Part shown: in pieces, positions 4,050 through 14,236 of the stretch
Position numbering within the stretch: the stretch's first letter is position 1
How the letters are laid out: each line of letters opens with the position of its first letter
From: a virus
IMG/VR virus record: IMGVR_UViG_3300045116_000511
Length of the DNA: 14,236 nucleotides
Reading direction: 5' to 3' (one strand)
The notes under the pieces: generated by a model
Databases searched by the model: none
Told to the model about the DNA's origin: nothing
What the model saw: the letters and a program-made list of their open reading frames with translations, nothing else
Made by a program: the position numbers and the translations under genes

Positions 4050-5417
4050 CTACTTCACAGCAGAGGCTACTGGAGTCACAGGCGCAACCGGGCCGGCGGC
4101 TGGTACATCTCGGACAATGCCCATACTCCGCATGAGCCACATGCTCACCAGATTGCCCATCCAATCTTGTTGCCCACCGCTGCCGCCACCCAACATGAGG
4201 GTCTGTGGGGCTTGAATGGCAGCCAGTTTGGCGGCGACCTCCACATCGCGCTTTGCGGCGATCTCAGCAAGCGTTCGTTCCTTCTCAGTGATAGCACCAC
4301 CTTTGGCGATTTTCTCTGATTGTGCCTCAGCAAGTACTCGGATGGCCTTTGCCTCAGCTTCGGCCGTTTGGACTTTGACTTCAGCAGCTTTCTTTTCCAA
4401 TTCGGCAACGGATAGCGCCTGCTGGGCTTTGGTCTCAGCCTCTTTCTTCCCCTGATCAGCAACAGCAACTTTCTGCTGGGCTTCGAGCGTTGCCACTTCC
4501 TTCTGCCGCTGAGCGTTGGTCACAGCAGTCACCTTTTCGACATTCGCTGCGGCTTCTGATTCCGCTGCCTGTCGCTTGCCTTTTTCAACCACCATTAAAC
4601 GCTGTTGCACTTCTTGCTCACGATCTGCCTTGGCTTGCTCGGCCTTCTGGAAAGACTCTTTCTTTGTGGCAAATCGTTCTAAAGTCTGTTTGTCGTAGTT
4701 GGTTGAAGTCACGCTGAATTGCAGCACTTCAAAACCGTATTCTTTCAGTGGGCTGATCTGACCGATCTTGGGTTTGCCCTTTTCGTCACGAATGATTTCT
4801 GTAGCAAAAACCGTGATTGGGTTCCCTTTCTCATCAGTCGCATCATGGAAGGTCTTCTCAATATGTCGCATCTCGTAAATGCCGTTACGCAACATGTCTT
4901 CGACAATCTGGGTAAATTCGGCTTTACGAGCGGATTGATGCTCTGATGAGGACATAAGTGGAGCGGCGGCCTTGCAGCAATTAATCATGTGCGCATGGAC
5001 TGCTGCTGCCATGTTATCCACGCTGCCGCTGAATTCGCGGTGAGCTTTTAGCCTCAATTCTTCAGTGCGAGGTGTGGCAAAGCGGATCATCGTTCCGAGG
5101 CCAGCAGTACCACCATCATTGAAGGTCACACGGTTGGTAGGATCACCTTCCTCCGCATGTCCCTTCTCACCCCCAAATTCATGTTGTACCGCACGTGGAT
5201 AAGTCCAGACATGGGCAAACATCTTCATGTACCAGCCTGGCTCATCCCTTACAGAAACGCTACCAGTTACCGACTGAATAATCTGCCAATCTTGGGCGTT
5301 ATTCAGTCCAAACCCACCAGTCACAAGGACTATCAGGACAATCAGCACAAAGATGCCGAGTCCTCCATAGAAAATGTGCCGCTTGCCAAGTCGAAACTCG
5401 CCAGTGTCTCTTGTCAT
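4050..5417 (-). CDS. SPFH/band-7 domain protein, flotillin-like (N-terminal TM, SPFH core, long Ala/Glu/Lys/Gln coiled coil).
   Basis: From ATG 5417 (SD AAGGAActaagATG): MTRDTGEFRLGKRHIFYGGLGIFVLIVLIVLVTGGFG (TM), then an SPFH-like core, then EA-rich heptads (...AEAEAKAIRVLAEAQSEKIAKGG...) as in flotillin/YqiK-type proteins. TAG stop at 4050-4052. The track's longer form from ATG 5474 adds FCMKGT x2 encoded by the tandem repeat. Confidence 0.85.
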   Translation of the reverse strand: MTRDTGEFRLGKRHIFYGGLGIFVLIVLIVLVTGGFGLNNAQDWQIIQSVTGSVSVRDEPGWYMKMFAHVWTYPRAVQHEFGGEKGHAEEGDPTNRVTFNDGGTAGLGTMIRFATPRTEELRLKAHREFSGSVDNMAAAVHAHMINCCKAAAPLMSSSEHQSARKAEFTQIVEDMLRNGIYEMRHIEKTFHDATDEKGNPITVFATEIIRDEKGKPKIGQISPLKEYGFEVLQFSVTSTNYDKQTLERFATKKESFQKAEQAKADREQEVQQRLMVVEKGKRQAAESEAAANVEKVTAVTNAQRQKEVATLEAQQKVAVADQGKKEAETKAQQALSVAELEKKAAEVKVQTAEAEAKAIRVLAEAQSEKIAKGGAITEKERTLAEIAAKRDVEVAAKLAAIQAPQTLMLGGGSGGQQDWMGNLVSMWLMRSMGIVRDVPAAGPVAPVTPVASAVK

Positions 5418-5421
5418 CTTA

Positions 5422-5457
5422 GTTCCTTTCATGCAGAATGTTCCTTTCATGCAGAAT
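5422..5457. repeat. Perfect tandem direct repeat, 2 x 18 bp (gttcctttcatgcagaat), in the SPFH gene leader.
   Basis: Read directly: 5422-5439 is identical to 5440-5457. On the minus strand each unit reads ATTCTGCATGAAAGGAAC, so it carries an in-frame ATG and an AAGGAA SD-like element. Confidence 0.9.
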
Positions 5458-5482
5458 ATCACACCATGTGACATTACTCTAA

Positions 5483-6032: not shown

Positions 6033-6531
6033 GCGAATTCATGATCTCTTCTTCCGTTGTTCGGCGGACGATAAGGCGGAAGCCTTCAATGACAATAGGC
6101 GTCTTTTCCCATTGACAATCCGATTGTGCTCGCAACTCCACAAACTTCCTGGCTCGTTCTTGTAGCGTTTTGATCTCAGCCTCGGTCGGTTTGGCGTCAA
6201 AGAAGATCGCAACGCTATTATAAGCTGGCCACTGATGTTTTACTTTCTTGGCTTTCGGATCGGTTTCTCGGTAATGTTGGCCGTTACCGTCATTGACCCA
6301 ACCCGGAGTGGCCCAAAGACTATACGGCAACGGACCATATTCGCCATACAGCGACACGAGATGTTCGTTGGGTTCGTCGTCCTCCCCAACTTTGTTTTCC
6401 TTGCGATACCGCTTGATCCATTCATCCTCGCCTTCTTCATTGTCGTAACCATTAAAACCGACAACGAAACCGCACATCTCGCGCTCGAAGTTACCGGCAT
6501 AACTGTCGGTATCGATGATAAAGACATACAA
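6025..6531 (-). CDS. Hypothetical acidic protein (C-terminal 168 codons as listed); the true N-terminus is unresolved.
   Basis: The track start at 6531 is TTG. The first ATG is at 6477. The frame stays open upstream to 6762 and encodes a zinc ribbon. Confidence 0.5.
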   Translation of the reverse strand: MYVFIIDTDSYAGNFEREMCGFVVGFNGYDNEEGEDEWIKRYRKENKVGEDDEPNEHLVSLYGEYGPLPYSLWATPGWVNDGNGQHYRETDPKAKKVKHQWPAYNSVAIFFDAKPTEAEIKTLQERARKFVELRAQSDCQWEKTPIVIEGFRLIVRRTTEEEIMNSHA

Positions 6532-6789
6532 TTCATCAGGCGGTAAATCTACTGAGTAAGTCCCTGGATATTTTTGATTGACCGCGGCCGTAATGGCATC
6601 ATCGCTGTCATTACCGAACGAAACCTCGCCACAGTTTCGGCATTTAGAAATCGGAACTTCTGGAACTGTGATGTCAACCAGCTCGCCTTTTACTCGAACT
6701 TTGAGGGCATAGTTTTCCAGCGTAGCCGGATAAACTTCTTGCTTCAGGCAAGTAACACAACGCTAGGGATACGGCTTCGACTTAGGCAT
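6532..6789 (-). other. In-frame upstream extension of the 6025-6531 ORF encoding a CxxC-x28-CxxC zinc ribbon with no canonical start; an upstream in-frame ATG (6789..6787) is separated from it by an amber TAG (6763-6765).
   Basis: Own translation: ATG CCT AAG TCG AAG CCG TAT CCC TAG | CGT TGT GTT ACT TGC ... reads MPKSKPYP*RCVTCLKQEVYPATLENYALKVRVKGELVDITVPEVPISKCRNCGEVSFGNDSDDAITAAVNQKYPGTYSVDLPPDE-LYVFIIDTD. Between the TAG and the TTG at 6531 there are 77 stop-free codons and no ATG/GTG/TTG. Confidence 0.5.
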
Positions 6790-7786
6790 CTTTCTCAAGA
6801 TAAGAGTCAGATACGATCTTGAGCATCACGCGCCCAATCTCCGCATCATTGCGTTCTTTCTCTGGGATGATCACGCAGCCTTCCCGGACATGATCAGCAC
6901 CGGGCCAGGTACTGCGCCCTTCCGAGAGTGAAAGAGCAATCTTGGCGTCAAACGGCCCTTTGTAGAGCAGAGGCACCCATGCCACTTTCGGGGTGACCAT
7001 CGCATAGGCTTCGTCAAAATCCAACCACTGATTCTGTTTCAGAACAGCAAAAGCGGCAAAAAAGACATCGTTCCTTTTTGCCCCGTACTTGAGCTTCTGG
7101 ACCTGCCCAAAAACTTCGCCGTACAGAATCAGAGTCGGGTGTTCCTTGCACCACTCTCCAATAGCTGGATTTCGGTGGAATGCCATCCACCAGTAGTTCT
7201 TGTCATCTTCAGCCAGCCAGTTGGTCCGCGAGCCGCAGAACTGTTTCCATTCCCCATCCTTGTCCTGGGCGTAGGTATATCTGGCGTTAGCTCCATGAAT
7301 CTTCTCGGTGATTACAACGGGCTCGCCAGCCGTAAACATCTGGAAGTAGCGCTGGTAGCATTCGACATCGAACTTAGGACAATACAGACCCGAAGGCCCA
7401 CCAACAAATAGCCCACCCGAAGACATGGGCAGCGGGGGCTCATATCGCTCAATGCCAAGTTCGGCAATGACGTTAGCGCCCACGGATCGATCCAGCAATT
7501 CCGGGGGCACCGGGATTAGCAGTCCCTGACTGAGCGCCCCCTTGAATCGACGGACTCGAATGCGTTCCTGCGGTTTACCATCTTCGCGCTTCAGAAACGC
7601 AAAAGATGGATTAGAAATTGGCACGAGATAATCCGGTGGGATATAGATCGCCAGATCACCCTCTTTGAAGTCGTCTTTGCCGATACAGCACTGCCAACCC
7701 CAGATGCGGGTAATTGCAAGCCGATCAGCGTTGGCGTGAGGCTCAATTTTACCGATTTGGACAATTTCAATTCGATGTTCGCTCAT
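6782..7786 (-). CDS. ATP-dependent RNA ligase, Rnl2-like nucleotidyltransferase with an N-terminal OB-like domain (Rnl5-type domain order), 334 aa.
   Basis: From ATG 7786 (GGAG 9 nt upstream); the codon at the track start 7807 is TTG. Motif I VVITEKIHGANARY (KxHGxN as in T4 Rnl2), motif III-like LILYGEVFGQ, motif IV-like DVFFAAFAV, motif V-like EGCVIIPEKE. N-terminal RIEIVQIGKIEPHANADRLAITRIWGWQCCIGKDDFKEGDLAIYIPPD resembles a tRNA-binding OB fold. Confidence 0.8.
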   Translation of the reverse strand: MSEHRIEIVQIGKIEPHANADRLAITRIWGWQCCIGKDDFKEGDLAIYIPPDYLVPISNPSFAFLKREDGKPQERIRVRRFKGALSQGLLIPVPPELLDRSVGANVIAELGIERYEPPLPMSSGGLFVGGPSGLYCPKFDVECYQRYFQMFTAGEPVVITEKIHGANARYTYAQDKDGEWKQFCGSRTNWLAEDDKNYWWMAFHRNPAIGEWCKEHPTLILYGEVFGQVQKLKYGAKRNDVFFAAFAVLKQNQWLDFDEAYAMVTPKVAWVPLLYKGPFDAKIALSLSEGRSTWPGADHVREGCVIIPEKERNDAEIGRVMLKIVSDSYLEKDA

Positions 7787-8217
7787 GCGGCATTGCTCCG
7801 TTTCCAAACAACAAACTCATAAAACTGCTGTCTGTTATTAAACTTCCAGCCGAACTTTTTATGAAAACTGATATGACATTTTCGGCACAAGCAAACTCCA
7901 TTGTCTAAGTCCACTCTCAAAGAGGGATTGGCGTGGTAGCTTTCAAGGTGGTGACTCGCTAACTCACCGCCGTGTTTGTTGCATACGACACATCTAAAAC
8001 CATCTCTTTCCTTTATCGCGATTCTCCATGCGCGGAACTCTTCTCTAATACGCCGATCCTGTCTCTCTGAATCGGTGAGTCGCGAATTCCAGGCTGGATT
8101 CTTATCTCCCGTCTGAGATTTCAGTCTTTCGTAATTCCAGCAACCACATGACTGAGTCGTTCCGCCTATAAGCGAATTGCGGAAAACAACGCATACGTTA
8201 CCACATTCTCGCCGACG
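7783..8217 (-). CDS. HNH endonuclease (His-Me finger). The open frame runs from the in-frame TAA at 8218-8220 to a TGA overlapping the RNA-ligase ATG, with no ATG/GTG/TTG before the catalytic core. Candidate ATT start at 8049 with an AGGA SD.
   Basis: Own translation: ...FRAWRIAIKERDGFRCVVCNKHGGELASHHLESYHANPSLRVDLDNGVCLCRKCHISFHKKFGW... (CxxC..HH..N..CxC..CH..H). It is not in the ORF track. The first canonical in-frame start, TTG, lies after the HH dyad. ATT (8049..8047) is preceded by AGGA with 7-nt spacing. A frame-1 ATG at 8194 plus a 1-nt change in the T4 run 8183-8186 would also give a full ORF. Confidence 0.55.
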   Translation of the reverse strand, partial: RRRECGNVCVVFRNSLIGGTTQSCGCWNYERLKSQTGDKNPAWNSRLTDSERQDRRIREEFRAWRIAIKERDGFRCVVCNKHGGELASHHLESYHANPSLRVDLDNGVCLCRKCHISFHKKFGWKFNNRQQFYEFVVWKRSNAA

Positions 8218-8230
8218 TTACGCGCTGTCA

Positions 8231-8497
8231 TCATGGCATCTTGCCCTGCTGAAATTCAGCATAGGTTACCGAGCCACCAGTCGGGCCGACCCCAGTAACA
8301 ATGAAGTTACCAGCCGAGCGACGGATGGTATGAACACCACGCTTACCCTTACGTCGCTCAAAGGGTTTGTACCGAATCTCCTGGCAGCCGCTCCCGTTAC
8401 ATTGGAGGCAGACTACACCAACGCCTGGTGGCTCGGCAAAGCCGCGGTAAATGCCACTTCCCTCACAAGCACCACACTCTGCTTTAACCGTTTCCAT
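8231..8497 (-). CDS. DnaJ-type zinc-finger protein (two CxxCxGxG repeats, one predicted Zn centre), 88 aa.
   Basis: METVKAECGACEGSGIYRGFAEPPGVGVVCLQCNGSGCQEIRY. SD GAGGcggaacATG. Ends in a double stop TGATGA. Confidence 0.65.
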   Translation of the reverse strand: METVKAECGACEGSGIYRGFAEPPGVGVVCLQCNGSGCQEIRYKPFERRKGKRGVHTIRRSAGNFIVTGVGPTGGSVTYAEFQQGKMP

Positions 8498-8900
8498 GTT
8501 CCGCCTCGATTAGCATGCGGCGCTTTAATCGACTCGCGGCAATTGCCCGTTCAAATTGCAATTTGGCCATCACGGTCGGCCCATCGTGGCATGCCTTGTT
8601 GTAGGCGGTCCACAGAGCCGTCCGCAGGTCACGACCCTCAACCTTTGCAACCGCCGCTTCAAATGCCCATCGGCGGCCGAAGGCGCGGAAAAAACTGTCA
8701 CCACCGCCACATTGGGCGCGATGCTCGGCAATCACATCGTATTGCCCATTGCCGACTTCATGGAGAATCTTAACCTCGGTAAACGGCTTTTCGTCCTTGA
8801 CGGACAAAACCTGTGCCGAAATTTTCTTCGGCACATGCGCTGGGTTAGAGTGAAAGACCTTGATACAAAACGATTGACCGCCGTGATTCAACCGGATCAT
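8484..8900 (-). CDS. Hypothetical 138-aa protein.
   Basis: ATG 8900 with an excellent SD (AAGGAGcaaccATG). TAA 8484-8486. No motif recognised. Confidence 0.6.
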   Translation of the reverse strand: MIRLNHGGQSFCIKVFHSNPAHVPKKISAQVLSVKDEKPFTEVKILHEVGNGQYDVIAEHRAQCGGGDSFFRAFGRRWAFEAAVAKVEGRDLRTALWTAYNKACHDGPTVMAKLQFERAIAASRLKRRMLIEAEHGNG

Positions 8901-8909
8901 GGTTGCTCC

Positions 8910-9245
8910 TTATTTCTTCAACACAGTATACGCTGCAATAATCCGTTTGGCTCTTTCATTGGACTCTTTGGTATTGCCACATCTATCTGGGTGGAATCGG
9001 AGCATCAGCATGCGATACGCATGCTTGATTTCGTCCTGAGTCGCATTCGGGCTAACACCAAGAATCACCCACGGTGAATCTGGTTGGCCGGAAAGAATCT
9101 CTTCGGCTTCTTCTCGGCCCATCGCCTCAGAGAAAGCTTGACGCCACTGAGCGGCGCTCCCGGCCGGGCCGACGTAAGTACCGTATGGCGACTGGTCAGT
9201 CCAGACGTTACGCTTTGGTTTATTGGGATCGCGCTGTCGAGGCAT
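8910..9245 (-). CDS. J-domain (DnaJ N-terminal domain) protein, 111 aa, with the J-domain at the C-terminus.
   Basis: WVILGVSPNATQDEIKHAYRMLMLRFHPDRCGNTKESNERAKRIIAAYTVLKK carries the HPD tripeptide and flanking helices. SD GGTGG. First gene downstream of a consensus promoter. Confidence 0.85.
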   Translation of the reverse strand: MPRQRDPNKPKRNVWTDQSPYGTYVGPAGSAAQWRQAFSEAMGREEAEEILSGQPDSPWVILGVSPNATQDEIKHAYRMLMLRFHPDRCGNTKESNERAKRIIAAYTVLKK

Positions 9246-9271
9246 CGTACCACCAATTAGCCGTCATGCGT

Positions 9272-9300
9272 ATAATACCGATTACTGGAAGAATTGTCAA
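9272..9300 (-). promoter_or_regulatory. Consensus sigma70-type promoter (TTGACA, 17-bp spacer, TATTAT) driving the minus-strand cluster that begins with the J-domain gene.
   Basis: Plus-strand tgtcaa at 9295-9300 and ataata at 9272-9277 read on the minus strand as TTGACA-17-TATTAT. The predicted TSS is near 9265 and the start codon is at 9245. Confidence 0.5.
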
Positions 9301-9361
9301 CCACGAATGATAGTAGTGCAGCCAAAGAAAAAAATTTCCCTGAATTTTTCAGAGGGCTGAA

Positions 9362-9390
9362 TTGACAGCACGTAGAATATGTCATATTCT
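9362..9390 (+). promoter_or_regulatory. Divergent plus-strand promoter (TTGACA, 17-bp spacer, TATTCT) whose -10 is embedded in a 17-bp perfect palindrome AGAATAT-gtc-ATATTCT (9374-9390). Operator-like.
   Basis: Read directly: TTGACA 9362-9367, a 17-nt spacer, TATTCT 9385-9390. The inverted repeat has 7-bp arms. An A-tract at 9325-9340 lies between the divergent promoters. Confidence 0.45.
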
Positions 9391-9499
9391 TCCATCGGCG
9401 TGGTAGGATCAACTCGTCGTTGATGCTGCCTTTGTCCTGTCACAAGACAGGCCGGGCTAAGCCCGCAGTGAGTGGAATCCCGACTGTAAAAGGAGAACG

Positions 9500-9616
9500 A
9501 TGATGTGGTTTGTTAATTTTTTTAGCTGGTTCAGCACCGCTGGTACGTTTATTGAGGGAGTCCAGAACTTCTTCGCATGGCTCACCTCGATTTTCAACCA
9601 GATCACCACTGCGTAG
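9500..9616 (+). CDS. Small hydrophobic 38-aa peptide (MMWFVNFFSWFSTAGTFIEGVQNFFAWLTSIFNQITTA). Membrane peptide or type I toxin-like.
   Basis: Strong SD AAGGAG 4 nt before ATG 9500. Double stop TAGTAA. A ~100-nt leader with three hairpins (9408-9424, 9436-9451, 9453-9465). Followed by a strong intrinsic terminator. Below the ORF-track size cutoff. Confidence 0.5.
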   Translation: MMWFVNFFSWFSTAGTFIEGVQNFFAWLTSIFNQITTA

Positions 9617-9628
9617 TAACAGCTGAGC

Positions 9629-9661
9629 AAAAAGGAAGGGCTCAATGCCCTTCCTTTTTCG
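9629..9661. terminator. Bidirectional rho-independent terminator (stem aaaggaagggc / gcccttccttt, loop tcaat, A-run before and T-run after).
   Basis: 9631-9657 forms an 11-bp perfect stem, followed by TTTTT on the plus strand and preceded by AAAAA, so it is also a terminator on the minus strand. Confidence 0.7.
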
Positions 9662-9869
9662 TTCCGTCAAACAAATCATCAGGCCATAGTATCTGCTTAT
9701 CACGCAGCGCGACTACGTCTCGGTAGAGAGACTTTAGAATCTTCACTCTTTCAAGGGCAAGGCCGTCGTGGTTCTTTAGAAGATCAGGTCGCAGAATTAG
9801 AAGTGTTTCGACACTCAGCAAAATTTCGACATTATGAATGCAAGTGGCGAATACGTCGAGTTTATTCAT
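9642..9869 (-). CDS. Hypothetical 75-aa protein whose stop lies inside the terminator hairpin.
   Basis: ORF track with ATG at 9869 and a weak SD. Protein-like composition (MNKLDVFATCIHNVEILLSVETLLILRPDLLKNHDG...). Confidence 0.4.
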   Translation of the reverse strand: MNKLDVFATCIHNVEILLSVETLLILRPDLLKNHDGLALERVKILKSLYRDVVALRDKQILWPDDLFDGTKKEGH

Positions 9870-10021
9870 CTTTTTCGAGCGAAAGAAACCTCGAAATCTT
9901 TAGTTTCTGGTAGAAATTCGCTCAACTCCTATTGTATAATAACACTGTTCTTTGACAACTACAAAAGAGAGCTATTGAGGAGCAAGCTCTGAAGTCTTTA
10001 GCTTCGGAGCAGTTGACTGAG

Positions 10022-10819
10022 TTAGTCCCAATCCGATCCTTGCTCAGTGGGCTTCCGGTCACGCAGCCACCGCTCGTAATCCCAAACATAAATCCCAAGC
10101 TCCCCGGATTTATTCACCATGCCAGTTTGACCTTCAAACCATTTCGAGAACCGCTTCACTTCCTCCGCTGAGTGATGCTCATCCAGCATCGCTTTTGTGA
10201 TGAATTTGATACCAGACTCGGTTTTGTAGAGTTTCTGAGGAATCCTACTCCCAGCAACGATGACCGGTTTTGACTTTTCCTCGCCGTATTTGTACTGGAA
10301 ACTGGGAGAACTCAATCGATCCGGGTCTTCCTTAAATCGAAGCGCCTGCTGCTTCAAAGCGTCGAGCAATTCCGTCTGATGCCCCGGATACAAATGAATC
10401 ACTGCCGGATGCCCATTCTGCGGGATGAAGACCATCGAGGTGCCCCAATATTCCCGAGCACTCTCGCAGGGAATCAGGACCAGCCTCGATCCGCACGCGC
10501 AGTCATCATCACAGCGGGTGATTAACACCGTAGGATGCTTCTTCGCCCACTTGGTCACTTCTTGGATAAGTTCGTGACCTTCCCACTTCCACTGACGACC
10601 AGCGGCTCCACAGGGACAAAACTTTTCAAGGAATCCATGCCAAATCTTGAACAGCTTCAGAGAATTGGCATTCATGCGCTTGCCACGCTCTCGAATAATC
10701 TTGCACTCCGACGCCAGACCAGGCCGGGATACTTGCTCCCCACAGTTACAGCGGAAGGCCATTTCCTTCCCATCTCCGCTGTATGAGCAGAGATTAAACT
10801 GATGTACATGCTTTTTCAT
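10022..10819 (-). CDS. Cys-rich hypothetical 265-aa protein with several CxC/CxxC clusters.
   Basis: FRCNCGE, FCPCGAAG, RCDDDCACGSRLVLIPC. ATG 10819 with an AGAGAGAA SD-like element. Followed 15 nt downstream by the hairpin 9985-10010. Confidence 0.65.
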   Translation of the reverse strand: MKKHVHQFNLCSYSGDGKEMAFRCNCGEQVSRPGLASECKIIRERGKRMNANSLKLFKIWHGFLEKFCPCGAAGRQWKWEGHELIQEVTKWAKKHPTVLITRCDDDCACGSRLVLIPCESAREYWGTSMVFIPQNGHPAVIHLYPGHQTELLDALKQQALRFKEDPDRLSSPSFQYKYGEEKSKPVIVAGSRIPQKLYKTESGIKFITKAMLDEHHSAEEVKRFSKWFEGQTGMVNKSGELGIYVWDYERWLRDRKPTEQGSDWD

Positions 10820-11282: not shown

Positions 11283-11399
11283 TTACGCTCGCCACTCTCG
11301 CTGGAAAGCCGTCAGTTGCGGGACGTTGCGACCATACTTGCGGCCATGCAGTCCCATGGCGTCCAGATGCTTGCATTGTCCATGCCGGATACAGATCAT
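11283..11399 (-). pseudogene. Remnant or duplicated copy of the SWIM-gene 3' end (38 codons: MICIRHGQCKHLDAMGLHGRKYGRNVPQLTAFQREWRA*).
   Basis: Own translation. It aligns with residues 74-108 of the 12130-12456 protein (NIRHGKCKHLDAMGLKGRAHGRNAEWIKKLGLRGV*). The DNA core 11353-11390 matches 12197-12234 at 34/38 positions. Its TAA (11283-11285) sits 12 nt upstream of ATG 11270, as a native gene junction would. Confidence 0.5.
11353..11390. repeat. Left copy of a 38-bp core direct repeat (34/38 identical to 12197-12234) flanking the plus-strand HNH gene.
   Basis: cccatggcgtccagatgcttgcattgtccatgccggat versus cccatagcgtcgagatgcttgcattttccatgtcggat. Confidence 0.85.
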
Positions 11400-11426
11400 G
11401 CCTGTTTATAGCCGAAGAAAACCAAA

Positions 11427-12158
11427 TTGTCAATGGTTGGGTATGTTCTAACGAAGAGGATTGTGACGAATTTCGCTGCATATATGTTGATGGAAACCAG
11501 AACGTGCAAAACCTGCGGTATTGTCAAGAACATTCGATCATTCCCCGAGAGATACGCAATAAAGGGAGGCAAGAAATACAGGCGTCACCAGTGCAACAGC
11601 TGTCGTTGCCGACGATACAAACCGCGCTATCGAAAAACTTTTAGAGATATCGCGAAACGATGCAGGGCAAAGTACAATGCAAACAAATCTGAGATGAAAA
11701 AGAAACTAATGGCTGCTGTATGGCAAGAAAAGTGCATTATATGTGGGGAGCCAGACCCCGTCATATTGTGCTTCCACCATCGATCAAAGATCGATAAAAA
11801 ATTCTGCGTTTCCTACGGATTCACACACTCTTATGGTTTTGACACTCTACTGGATGAAGCCAAAAAGTGCGATGTAATATGTCATAATTGCCACGCAAAG
11901 AACCACTCAAACCAGTTGCCAAGCCGCCACAAAGATAGGATATTTGAACACATAGGCGACAACAAATGCAAGACATGCGGTGAAAGTGACGCTAGGACAC
12001 TTTGTTTCCATCACCACGACCCGTCAAAAAAAGAGTTCAAACTATCTTGTAGATTTCGGCGCGGCAGATCATGGGAACAGGTATTATCTGAGGCCAGCAA
12101 ATGTATATTGCTATGTGCCAACTGTCATATCAGACTCCACGCAACCCGAGCTTTTTAA
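11427..12158 (+). CDS. Tandem-HNH nuclease (two CxxCG..FHH..KC..C(H/A)NCH modules) with an N-terminal CxxC..CxxC zinc ribbon. Freestanding homing-endonuclease-like, AT-rich, and the only confident plus-strand protein gene.
   Basis: Module 1: CIICGEPDPVILCFHHRSKIDKKF...EAKKCDVICHNCHAKNH. Module 2: CKTCGESDARTLCFHHHDPSKKEF...EASKCILLCANCHIRLH. N-terminus: CKTCG...CNSCRC. The start is ambiguous: the track start 11427 is TTG, and ATGs occur at 11433, 11484 and 11490. The AAGAGGA at 11453-11459 is not well spaced to any of them. TAA 12156-12158 overlaps the convergent SWIM gene by 29 nt. Confidence 0.7.
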   Translation: MSMVGYVLTKRIVTNFAAYMLMETRTCKTCGIVKNIRSFPERYAIKGGKKYRRHQCNSCRCRRYKPRYRKTFRDIAKRCRAKYNANKSEMKKKLMAAVWQEKCIICGEPDPVILCFHHRSKIDKKFCVSYGFTHSYGFDTLLDEAKKCDVICHNCHAKNHSNQLPSRHKDRIFEHIGDNKCKTCGESDARTLCFHHHDPSKKEFKLSCRFRRGRSWEQVLSEASKCILLCANCHIRLHATRAF

Positions 12159-12456
12159 TCCACTCGGCATTTCGTCCATGCGCTCGCCCTTTGAGCCCCA
12201 TAGCGTCGAGATGCTTGCATTTTCCATGTCGGATGTTTCCTCTACAGCTGCATTTCCAATATCCTGCACCTGGAGACGAATCAAACGAAATCCGGTAAAT
12301 GCTATCACTGCTCTCGGATCGGATGTCGAATCGACATTTGTAGCGAGTGTCATCTGGATGCAGGGCAACTGCGGCACGCTGTGCTGATGCTGGAAGCAGT
12401 TGAATAGAGTTCACTTTTTTCTCCTTTGTTTTGGTCTTCCGCTTTGCTTTAGCCAT
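12130..12456 (-). CDS. SWIM-type zinc-finger protein (CxCx9CxH), 108 aa, with a basic N-terminus.
   Basis: MAKAKRKTKTKEKK... then WKCSCRGNIRHGKCKH. SD AGGAGttgaagaATG. A consensus promoter lies immediately upstream. Confidence 0.65.
   Translation of the reverse strand: MAKAKRKTKTKEKKVNSIQLLPASAQRAAVALHPDDTRYKCRFDIRSESSDSIYRISFDSSPGAGYWKCSCRGNIRHGKCKHLDAMGLKGRAHGRNAEWIKKLGLRGV
12197..12234. repeat. Right copy of the 38-bp core repeat, lying inside the SWIM gene.
   Basis: See 11353-11390. Confidence 0.85.
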
Positions 12457-13011: not shown

Positions 13012-14236
13012 TTAGTCTGTGTCGCTCTCAGTGGACTGGATGCCAGCGCCGAGCCGGTTTACAATGTTCGCCAACGGAGTCCCGTTAAAGACCTTCGTCA
13101 GCACCTCAACCACGCTCTCGCCGCCAATCAGTGACTGGATCGAAATCGCCTTTGCCGCCTTGGTCAGCACATCGTCGCGATTCAGAGCCAGCAGAGCCTC
13201 TGCCATCTTGCCATCGGCAGCTTTGAAGCGACTGATGGTTGATTCGCTCTCTGCCACAAGTTGCCTCAAAGTCAGCTCCAGACGTTTCTGCTCAACGTCA
13301 TGGTCATGACCGTCTTTCTCCACCACTCGCTTCATGTTGGCGTTGTGACGGATGTCCTCGACTACCTCATTGGCTTGAGCCTGCTTTTGCTGTCCCTCAA
13401 CCTTCTTCATGATGGCTTCGAGATTCTGCGCCTCGACTTCCATTTCCTTACGCAGAATCTCTTGTTCTGTGGACAGCTGCTGTTTGCGGGTATCCGCAGT
13501 CGCCACATTGACTTGCTGGTTCAGTTTCTCCTGCTCCAGCTTGCCCGACACATTACGCCGAGCATTCTGCAAGTCAATGTTGGCTTTCACCGCCGCAAAC
13601 TGCGCCGACATGAGCAGATTTGCGACGTTCTGGTCAGCAATTGTGAAACCCAGGACTTCGACATCCTGGACGATCATGCCGTTTTCCTTGAAAGGCATGC
13701 CCTTGCGGACGCCCTCGACCGAGTGGCCCAGAATGGCGTCACGAATGATCGGGACGTGATTAGCATAGAACTCTTCGATTGTGTGAGTCTTGACCACACC
13801 TTTGAGGACCGAGCGGACGTGATCGCAAAGCAGCTTGACGTAGTTCTCGACTTCAAACCACTTGTCCGGCTCACCGTCGAAGTTAACGAGCAGCGAAATC
13901 TTCACGGAGACCGAAACGTGATCGCTGGTCTCGACATCGATGATGTCAGAAACTTTGTTGTTGCGCGTCCGCAAGTAAACAGTGCGCTCCAACTTGTCGG
14001 TATTCTTCGGCTTGCCTGTTGACAGTTCCAGCACTTCCAGTGACTCGTCGTAGTCAAGCAGAATCGTAGTCGGACCCTGCTCAACGCGCCGACCACCTTT
14101 CTTGTCTACCACCATGACGGCATACCCTGTCCACACGTTGATGGTGGGGACGCCATCATATTTGGTATCCAAGGTGATCGAGCGGGGCTGCGTATACGAC
14201 GTACCACGCTTGATTGTATCTGCTGCGGATAGTTGG
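13012..14236 (-). CDS. Second SPFH/band-7 domain protein (C-terminal >400 aa); the 5' end lies beyond the window.
   Basis: The track 'start' at 14172 is TTG and the frame stays open to the window edge (..QLSAADTIKRGTSYTQPRSITLDTKYDGVPTINVWTGYAVMVVDKKGG..). SPFH-like core (...VPIIRDAILGHSVEGVRKGMPFKENGMIVQDVEVLGFTIADQNVANLLMSAQFAAVKANIDLQNARR...), then a Gln/Glu/Lys-rich coiled coil. TAA at 13012-13014. Confidence 0.8.
   Translation of the reverse strand, partial: QLSAADTIKRGTSYTQPRSITLDTKYDGVPTINVWTGYAVMVVDKKGGRRVEQGPTTILLDYDESLEVLELSTGKPKNTDKLERTVYLRTRNNKVSDIIDVETSDHVSVSVKISLLVNFDGEPDKWFEVENYVKLLCDHVRSVLKGVVKTHTIEEFYANHVPIIRDAILGHSVEGVRKGMPFKENGMIVQDVEVLGFTIADQNVANLLMSAQFAAVKANIDLQNARRNVSGKLEQEKLNQQVNVATADTRKQQLSTEQEILRKEMEVEAQNLEAIMKKVEGQQKQAQANEVVEDIRHNANMKRVVEKDGHDHDVEQKRLELTLRQLVAESESTISRFKAADGKMAEALLALNRDDVLTKAAKAISIQSLIGGESVVEVLTKVFNGTPLANIVNRLGAGIQSTESDTD

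Follow-up and report, generated by a model that had tools for sequence, protein, structure and literature searches.

A minimal J-domain protein and a CxxCxGxG zinc-finger protein encoded in one operon of a phage contig probably do not constitute a split DnaJ

The window analysed here, i.e. the whole 14,236-bp JGI contig deposited as IMGVR_UViG_3300045116_000511, is most likely a fragment of the genome of a large, probably jumbo, phage, and it carries a compact group of three small genes encoding a 111-residue J-domain protein (the J protein), a 138-residue ORFan and an 88-residue zinc-finger protein with two CxxCxGxG motifs. Based on comparisons of the two recognisable protein families and of their gene neighbourhoods, we propose that these are three real, co-transcribed genes which do not encode a DnaJ in pieces, that the J protein operates as a class-C co-chaperone bringing DnaK to a phage partner, and that the zinc-finger gene is unrelated to it. 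We consider this interpretation rather probable. The evidence comes from two directions: the J and zinc-finger families do not keep each other as neighbours, and the J family is linked, and in one contig fused, to a SWIM-type zinc-finger protein.

Results

The three-gene transcription unit

The three open reading frames (ORFs) were found on the minus strand where the first-pass annotation, made from the sequence of the window, had placed them. They are tightly packed in the ORF list and preceded by a promoter-like sequence:

8910-9245, minus strand: J-domain protein gene, 111 amino acids, first of the three ORFs
8484-8900, minus strand: gene of the 138-residue ORFan, second
8231-8497, minus strand: zinc-finger protein gene, 88 amino acids, third
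9272-9300, minus strand: sigma-70-like promoter, TTGACA-17 nt-TATTAT, directly upstream of the J gene

The promoter matches at 11 of 12 positions and is the top site in a scan of positions 6500-10200, with a terminator-like hairpin (9354-9338, minus strand) immediately upstream of it. Between the stop of the J gene and the start of the 138-residue ORF lies a 9-nt gap containing AGGAG, and the 138- and 88-residue ORFs share a 14-nt overlap. Based on this spacing, the promoter and the hairpin, the J, 138-residue and zinc-finger genes are placed at the head of one transcription unit, in agreement with the shared operon proposed earlier, and translational coupling of the 138-residue ORF to the genes on either side is predicted. 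When codon usage was scored with the larger genes of the window as training set, each of the three ORFs gave a positive value solely in its annotated frame. Taken together, the features of the locus indicate three real genes that lie in an accessory region of a large phage and presumably share a transcript started at a host-type promoter.

No Pfam, PHROG or NCBIfam match was detected for the 138-residue protein. In an index of 5.8 billion proteins it retrieved only itself, in IMG/VR no relative, and among 1.84 billion representatives itself together with one marginal match of 29 residues. Its single-sequence AlphaFold2 (AF2) model, with a predicted local distance difference test (pLDDT) value of 44.5, is unusable. 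A nucleotide search of window positions 7800-9500 against 50,697 phage records, the collection also used for the tblastn searches below, returned no match.

The J-domain protein and its family

The J protein matches Pfam DnaJ (PF00226) over residues 60-110 with 56.4 bits (cut-off 27.8, E=3.2e-15), and the HPD tripeptide occupies residues 85-87 (nt 8985-8993). Of the 63 profile positions the match spans 4-54, with the protein terminating one residue further on, i.e. right after helix III (helices I-III, residues 58-111, nt 8913-9074); helix IV is therefore absent. Hence, of the complete J-domain with HPD that had been described in the first-pass annotation, the J-domain and the HPD are borne out, whereas its completeness is not. 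The NCBIfam models for DnaJ, DjlA, CbpA and AtcJ match the J-domain part only, all of them far under their cut-offs, and with 34.8 bits against a cut-off of 150 the protein is not a member of the AtcJ family (NF050028). On this profile evidence the 111-residue protein is assigned as a genuine stand-alone class-C (type III) J-domain protein. Because it consists of a stand-alone J-domain with HPD, recruitment of an Hsp70, presumably host DnaK, is a reasonable default by analogy to characterised J proteins.

Preceding the J-domain, residues ~12-53 (nt 9087-9212) harbour an N-terminal motif, F..GY..Y....G.G....W...F...M....A, that is conserved in an alignment of 28 distinct J-family sequences. HPD is conserved in 27 of the 28, and all members terminate shortly past helix III. 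These sequences appear to represent a previously undescribed family of phage class-C J proteins of ~100-115 residues, in which a ~40-residue N-terminal motif is combined with a minimal J-domain. The closest relative (P0033, 79% identity) is encoded on a 732-bp contig (L025), where TTGACT-17-TATTAT is located directly upstream of the J gene and the gene that follows differs from that of the window, its product beginning MKPIVLNDPL. More distant relatives, originating from IMG/VR, JGI metagenomes and LR756511, a 595-kb 'uncultured phage', are 35-47% identical and share the N-terminal region. In tblastn at E<=1e-3 the J protein matched 29 of the phage records. We note that one family member (L033, 9974-10366, on the same contig as L065) has YPE replacing HPD and an insertion of ~10 residues past helix I, with its gene still adjoining a SWIM gene (see below); it is possibly a J-like protein that has lost the ability to activate Hsp70.

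Linkage of the J family to a SWIM-type zinc-finger protein

BLAST clustering of the genes around the J loci revealed a recurrent neighbour, a protein of ~80-90 residues encoded on the same strand and 250-900 bp (within ~1 kb) away in most loci. Its SWIM-like signature, C69-x-C71...C80-x-H82, is invariant in the family alignment, and five of eight family members match Pfam SWIM (PF04434; best E=1.9e-4), with the protein of the window at 11.8 bits versus 19.6. Against 415.6 kb of phage DNA serving as control, the hidden Markov model (HMM) of this family gave no strong match. When the search was instead begun with the SWIM family, independently of the J loci, 24 IMG/VR loci were retrieved, and a J-family gene adjoins the SWIM gene in 21 of them. 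In one contig (L056, 5905-6492) the two are fused into a single ORF of 195 residues, which argues that the SWIM and J proteins act together. The paired genes would usually be translationally coupled. At L043, which encodes the closest SWIM relative (57% identity), they overlap by ATGA, and at L028 and L036 both lie on the same strand within closely packed gene clusters, with either of them coming first. No SWIM-J module was found in the literature searched.

Two observations from these loci are recorded separately. At L047 (1981-6342) the SWIM-family match is located inside a stop-free stretch of 1454 codons and a J-family gene was not found nearby, so that the SWIM domain may here be embedded in a large multidomain protein. 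At L043 (3454-4083), 2 kb upstream of the SWIM-J pair, a 209-residue protein carries two CxxCxGxG motifs with a 31-residue spacing and belongs outside the 88-residue family.

The window itself also encodes a putative SWIM protein, 3.2 kb upstream of the J gene, in a segment with the following features:

12130-12456, minus strand: SWIM-type zinc-finger protein gene, 108 amino acids (CSC...CKH), family HMM E=1.6e-32
11427-12158, plus strand: HNH-like Cys-rich ORF, 243 amino acids, with CHNCH and CANCH motifs, between the SWIM gene and the remnant 3' end
11286-11405, minus strand: remnant of the SWIM gene 3' end, 40 codons, family HMM E=2.2e-5, reading IRHGQCKHLDAMGLHGRKYGRN

The 3' end of the SWIM gene is present twice, flanking the HNH-like gene, and reads IRHGKCKHLDAMGLKGRAHGRN in the intact gene and IRHGQCKHLDAMGLHGRKYGRN in the remnant. 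This looks like the outcome of a homing-endonuclease cassette having inserted into the SWIM gene and brought along a replacement 3' end. As the 243-residue ORF has no Pfam match at E<=0.01, its HNH assignment was made from the motifs as read. Between the remnant and the J gene follow three ORFans and then the promoter. With the HNH-like gene, the remnant, the ORFans and the promoter intervening, the J gene is separated from SWIM in the lineage of the window, which includes L025.

A J protein may also influence the host without any phage partner, as Rki of phage RB43 sets a precedent for (PMC3486835). In such a scenario, the J protein would compete with DnaJ, CbpA and DjlA for DnaK and thereby alter sigma-32 turnover and the early heat-shock response; the sigma-70-like promoter and the first position of the J gene in its unit fit the early expression that this would involve. 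However, both the N-terminal motif conserved across the 28 sequences and the tight SWIM linkage with one fusion argue for a specific partner over pure competition. Moreover, no similarity to the C-terminal domain of Rki was detected, and RB43, as well as RB16 and KP15, is absent from the 29 records matched in tblastn. We regard competition of this kind as unlikely, and favour a J protein that serves a dedicated partner.

The zinc-finger protein and its family

The 88-residue protein displays two DnaJ-type motifs, CGACEGSG at residues 8-15 and CLQCNGSG at residues 30-37 (nt 8453-8476 and 8387-8410, respectively), whose four cysteines are predicted to be enough for one Cys4 site. A protein index yielded a family of 30 proteins of 87-108 residues which, the query itself aside, are 47-72% identical. 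C8, C11, C30, C33, G15 and G35 are invariant across these, and at least 90% retain G13 and G37; with four invariant cysteines in 30 homologues, the motifs are not a product of chance. The C-terminal half, which is beta-rich, is conserved in the family as well (Y..PF..RK.R..V.TV.RS.G.F..TGVGPTGG.V.Y.EF..GKMP).

Known profiles recognise the protein below their cut-offs, with 12.5 bits against 32.7 for DnaJ_CXXCXGXG (PF00684) and 11 against 32 for Anti-TRAP (PF15777). Across the family, 28 of the 30 members touch PF00684, 25 Anti-TRAP and 10 BSD2_CRD (PF25436), never better than E~1e-3 (best PF00684 match E=0.0027; BSD2_CRD E>=0.013). The AF2 model computed from the family alignment reached a pLDDT of 90, and its best structural matches are DnaJA2, BSD2, DnaJA3 and the cysteine-rich (CR) region of E. 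coli DnaJ. Residues 40-88 have no structural match, and a sequence-profile search of the PDB with the family returned nothing significant, only matches at chance level. In hhalign, the family aligns with motifs 2-3 of a genuine DnaJ, i.e. with zinc centre II, at the same 22-residue spacing. Owing to this placement and spacing, the first 40 residues are most aptly viewed as one putative CR-type Cys4 hairpin that corresponds to zinc centre II of DnaJ and that we infer to bind zinc. The motifs and the putative hairpin are in line with what had been read from the sequence at first. With Foldseek, 115 viral proteins of the library BFVD matched at E<=10 but not one reached E<=0.001; alignments to the best of these cover about 35-60 residues, and a few are annotated 'DnaJ-like' or 'heat shock protein'. 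Small proteins with a CR-type hairpin therefore appear common in phages.

Among small phage proteins, those of the 88-residue type would accordingly constitute a widespread family distinct from the J family, defined by one CR-type hairpin and a C-terminal domain of their own. By analogy to anti-TRAP and BSD2, the protein is most likely a binding module that works on its own and is stabilised by zinc. Neighbour clustering by BLAST at the zinc-finger loci revealed no conserved partner, with an SPFH-like protein within ~3 kb in only four loci. Homologues of the 474-residue SPFH-like protein of the window lie within ~3 kb of the zinc-finger gene at L012, L014 and L016. At L002 (3289-4851) and L003 (3232-4851), a gene close to that of the zinc-finger homologue encodes RNA ligase and a LAGLIDADG domain in one product, and the ligase gene appears to have been invaded by a homing endonuclease or an intein; an HSP20 gene is found there 5 kb from the zinc-finger gene.

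The J and zinc-finger families are not linked

The first-pass annotation had interpreted the J and zinc-finger proteins as the two halves of DnaJ, which, perhaps with the 138-residue protein as client or bridge, would form a DnaJ-like co-chaperone that retargets host DnaK. Several features of the window speak for this proposal: the three genes are co-transcribed and translationally coupled, the 22-residue motif spacing is that of DnaJ motifs 2-3, where hhalign aligns the finger, and the J lineage of the window is no longer adjacent to SWIM. In addition, zinc centre II is the one required for the DnaK-dependent activity of DnaJ.

The comparative data argue against it. Apart from the window, 30 zinc-finger loci were assembled from assemblies, IMG/VR (20 loci, on contigs of 10-488 kb) and species genomes (five contigs from metagenome-assembled genomes), and were searched using phmmer with four J-domains and an HMM of nine J-domains with filters off. 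No J-domain was detected within 6-10 kb in any of these loci. Reciprocally, the loci of 27 other J-family sequences contain no zinc-finger-family gene, and tblastn of the zinc-finger protein against the phage records, LR756511 included, matched one other phage only, weakly (E=6e-3). Downstream of the J gene that is 79% identical to that of the window lies a different gene. In 393 kb of J/SWIM loci there are 2 ORFs with two CxxCxGxG motifs, versus 1 in 416 kb of control phage DNA; a general enrichment of CR-type ORFs near J genes was consequently rejected, as the rate equals that of the control. The parts with which DnaJ binds its clients are absent too, as no G/F-rich stretch was found in the three translated ORFs and none of their products matches DnaJ_C (C-terminal domains, CTD, I and II) at E<=1. 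Further, the 88-residue protein has two zinc repeats, and with them one of two zinc centres, versus four repeats in the genuine DnaJ encoded at L041 (spaced by 17, 22 and 14 residues). Stand-alone CR-type fingers such as anti-TRAP and BSD2 also function without Hsp70.

With the families never neighbours in the other loci inspected, CR-type ORFs not enriched and the client-binding parts missing, the division of DnaJ into two proteins is not upheld, and we judge it improbable. Since neither family keeps the other as neighbour and CR-type ORFs are not enriched near J genes, the adjacency in the window appears to be idiosyncratic, presumably an accident of gene shuffling.

Other genes of the window

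The RNA ligase of the window is 34% identical to that of LR756511, and further genes encode an SPFH-like protein, a vault-shoulder-domain protein and HNH proteins. The 474-residue SPFH-like protein (4050-5474, minus strand) combines a weak SPFH/Band-7 match with a long Ala/Glu/Lys-rich coiled region. A 386-residue protein (13012-14172, minus strand) matches the shoulder domain of Major Vault Protein at E=5e-25 and the vault repeat domain at E=2.7e-8. Downstream of the zinc-finger gene, the ORF at 7783-8234 (minus strand) is HNH-endonuclease-like, with PHROG HNH matches on the final 45 residues. It has 145 open codons, yet no ATG, GTG or TTG before codon ~100; the ATGATG at 8229-8234 is in a different frame and meets a stop after 22 codons. 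This ORF has a negative codon-usage score and ends in a stop that overlaps, as ATGA, the likely start of the RNA ligase gene. Either a frameshift has made it a pseudogene or the assembly is in error.

Discussion

Based on the family and neighbourhood comparisons, we propose that the J protein operates as follows. The J-domain would dock on ATP-bound DnaK, either that of the host or a phage-encoded one, if any, and trigger ATP hydrolysis, by analogy to Rki and AtcJ. In conjunction, the N-terminal motif would hold a specific partner, which across the family is most likely the SWIM protein encoded by the adjacent gene, as suggested by the adjacency and the fusion and with AtcJ serving as model. 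The 88-residue finger would function as an independent binding module, its place beside the J gene being accidental. Extending this, SWIM and the minimal J protein may tentatively be viewed as a module of two genes, so far undescribed, that large phages would use as a dedicated adaptor to pass a target specified by phage or host on to DnaK, with a partner swap possible in the lineage of the window.

A number of points weigh against this interpretation. The J gene is not adjacent to SWIM in the window or in L025, and this lineage may have changed partner, in which case the operon-mates, i.e. the 138-residue protein and the zinc finger, could be the new ones. The zinc-finger loci were inspected over 6-10 kb per side on contigs of up to 527 kb, leaving room for J-domain genes elsewhere in the zinc-finger phages, and pattern-based scans of loci can miss divergent family members. 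Finally, the J-domain, whose activity is predicted, is without helix IV.

A role in counter-defence, in which the J protein would displace host DnaJ from DnaK or from clients and thereby blind DnaJ-dependent sensors such as bNACHT25, would be in keeping with the abundance of anti-defence genes in accessory regions of large phages and with the reported need for host DnaJ in phage sensing by bNACHT25 (PMC12169576, cited in PMC12619734), but leaves the SWIM linkage unexplained and is very improbable.

A split DnaJ would, if true, represent a new architecture; in light of the comparative data, the claim is not to be carried forward. The SWIM-J module is the part worth follow-up, as it provides a concrete pair for asking which clients phages deliver to DnaK. 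To our knowledge, phage J-domain proteins are among the few routes to reprogramme the Hsp70 machine of the host, and only Rki has been studied. Phages have many small CR-type zinc proteins that await explanation, and among these the 88-residue family is a clean and well-conserved case.

Phage J-domain proteins and phage CxxCxGxG modules are both already known. Among the former, Rki (gp057w of the T4-like phage RB43), the first to be characterised, comprises 237 residues, carries its J-domain at the N-terminus, binds DnaK and stabilises sigma-32 (PMC3486835). Like Rki, the J protein of the window is a stand-alone class-C J protein of a phage, with HPD and with helix IV poorly conserved or absent, it is encoded by the first gene in a small cluster of unknown genes, and it presumably acts on host DnaK. 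The two differ in architecture, as the C-terminal J-domain of the 111-residue protein follows a 40-residue motif, whereas Rki has an N-terminal J-domain together with a C-terminal domain of 160 residues; similarity outside the J-domain is not detectable, and linkage to a SWIM protein sets the present family apart. AtcJ of Shewanella oneidensis (atcJABC), in which an extension of 21 residues binds the operon-encoded AtcC and so links AtcC to DnaK, is similarly a very short J protein (94 residues compared to 111; PMC6715715) and also the product of the first gene of its operon. However, AtcJ is bacterial, carries its 21-residue extension at the C-terminus, has a four-helix J-domain and serves an unrelated partner.

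For the 88-residue protein, the closest parallels are the CR region of DnaJ, anti-TRAP and BSD2, in which CxxCxGxG motifs pair to bind zinc via four cysteines, as is predicted here. Anti-TRAP has one zinc site per chain, the number also predicted for the 88-residue protein, whereas in DnaJ four motifs, which make up two zinc centres, are inserted in CTD I. Marine phages of the HMO-2011 type contain a partial DnaJ central domain with two CxxCxGxG motifs inserted in their DNA polymerase (PMC9038755). This is likewise a phage half-CR module with exactly two motifs outside a DnaJ; unlike it, the 88-residue protein is free-standing, has its own C-terminal domain and lacks a conserved neighbour. Moraphages carry DnaJ/DnaK genes (PMC12619734), and in the jumbo phage PA5oct of Pseudomonas (MK797984.1, 192924-195842; locus L029) a 229-residue J protein, annotated 'chaperone protein DnaJ', is encoded directly upstream of a gene for a ClpA-like AAA+ ATPase, so that the J-domain is paired with another kind of partner there.

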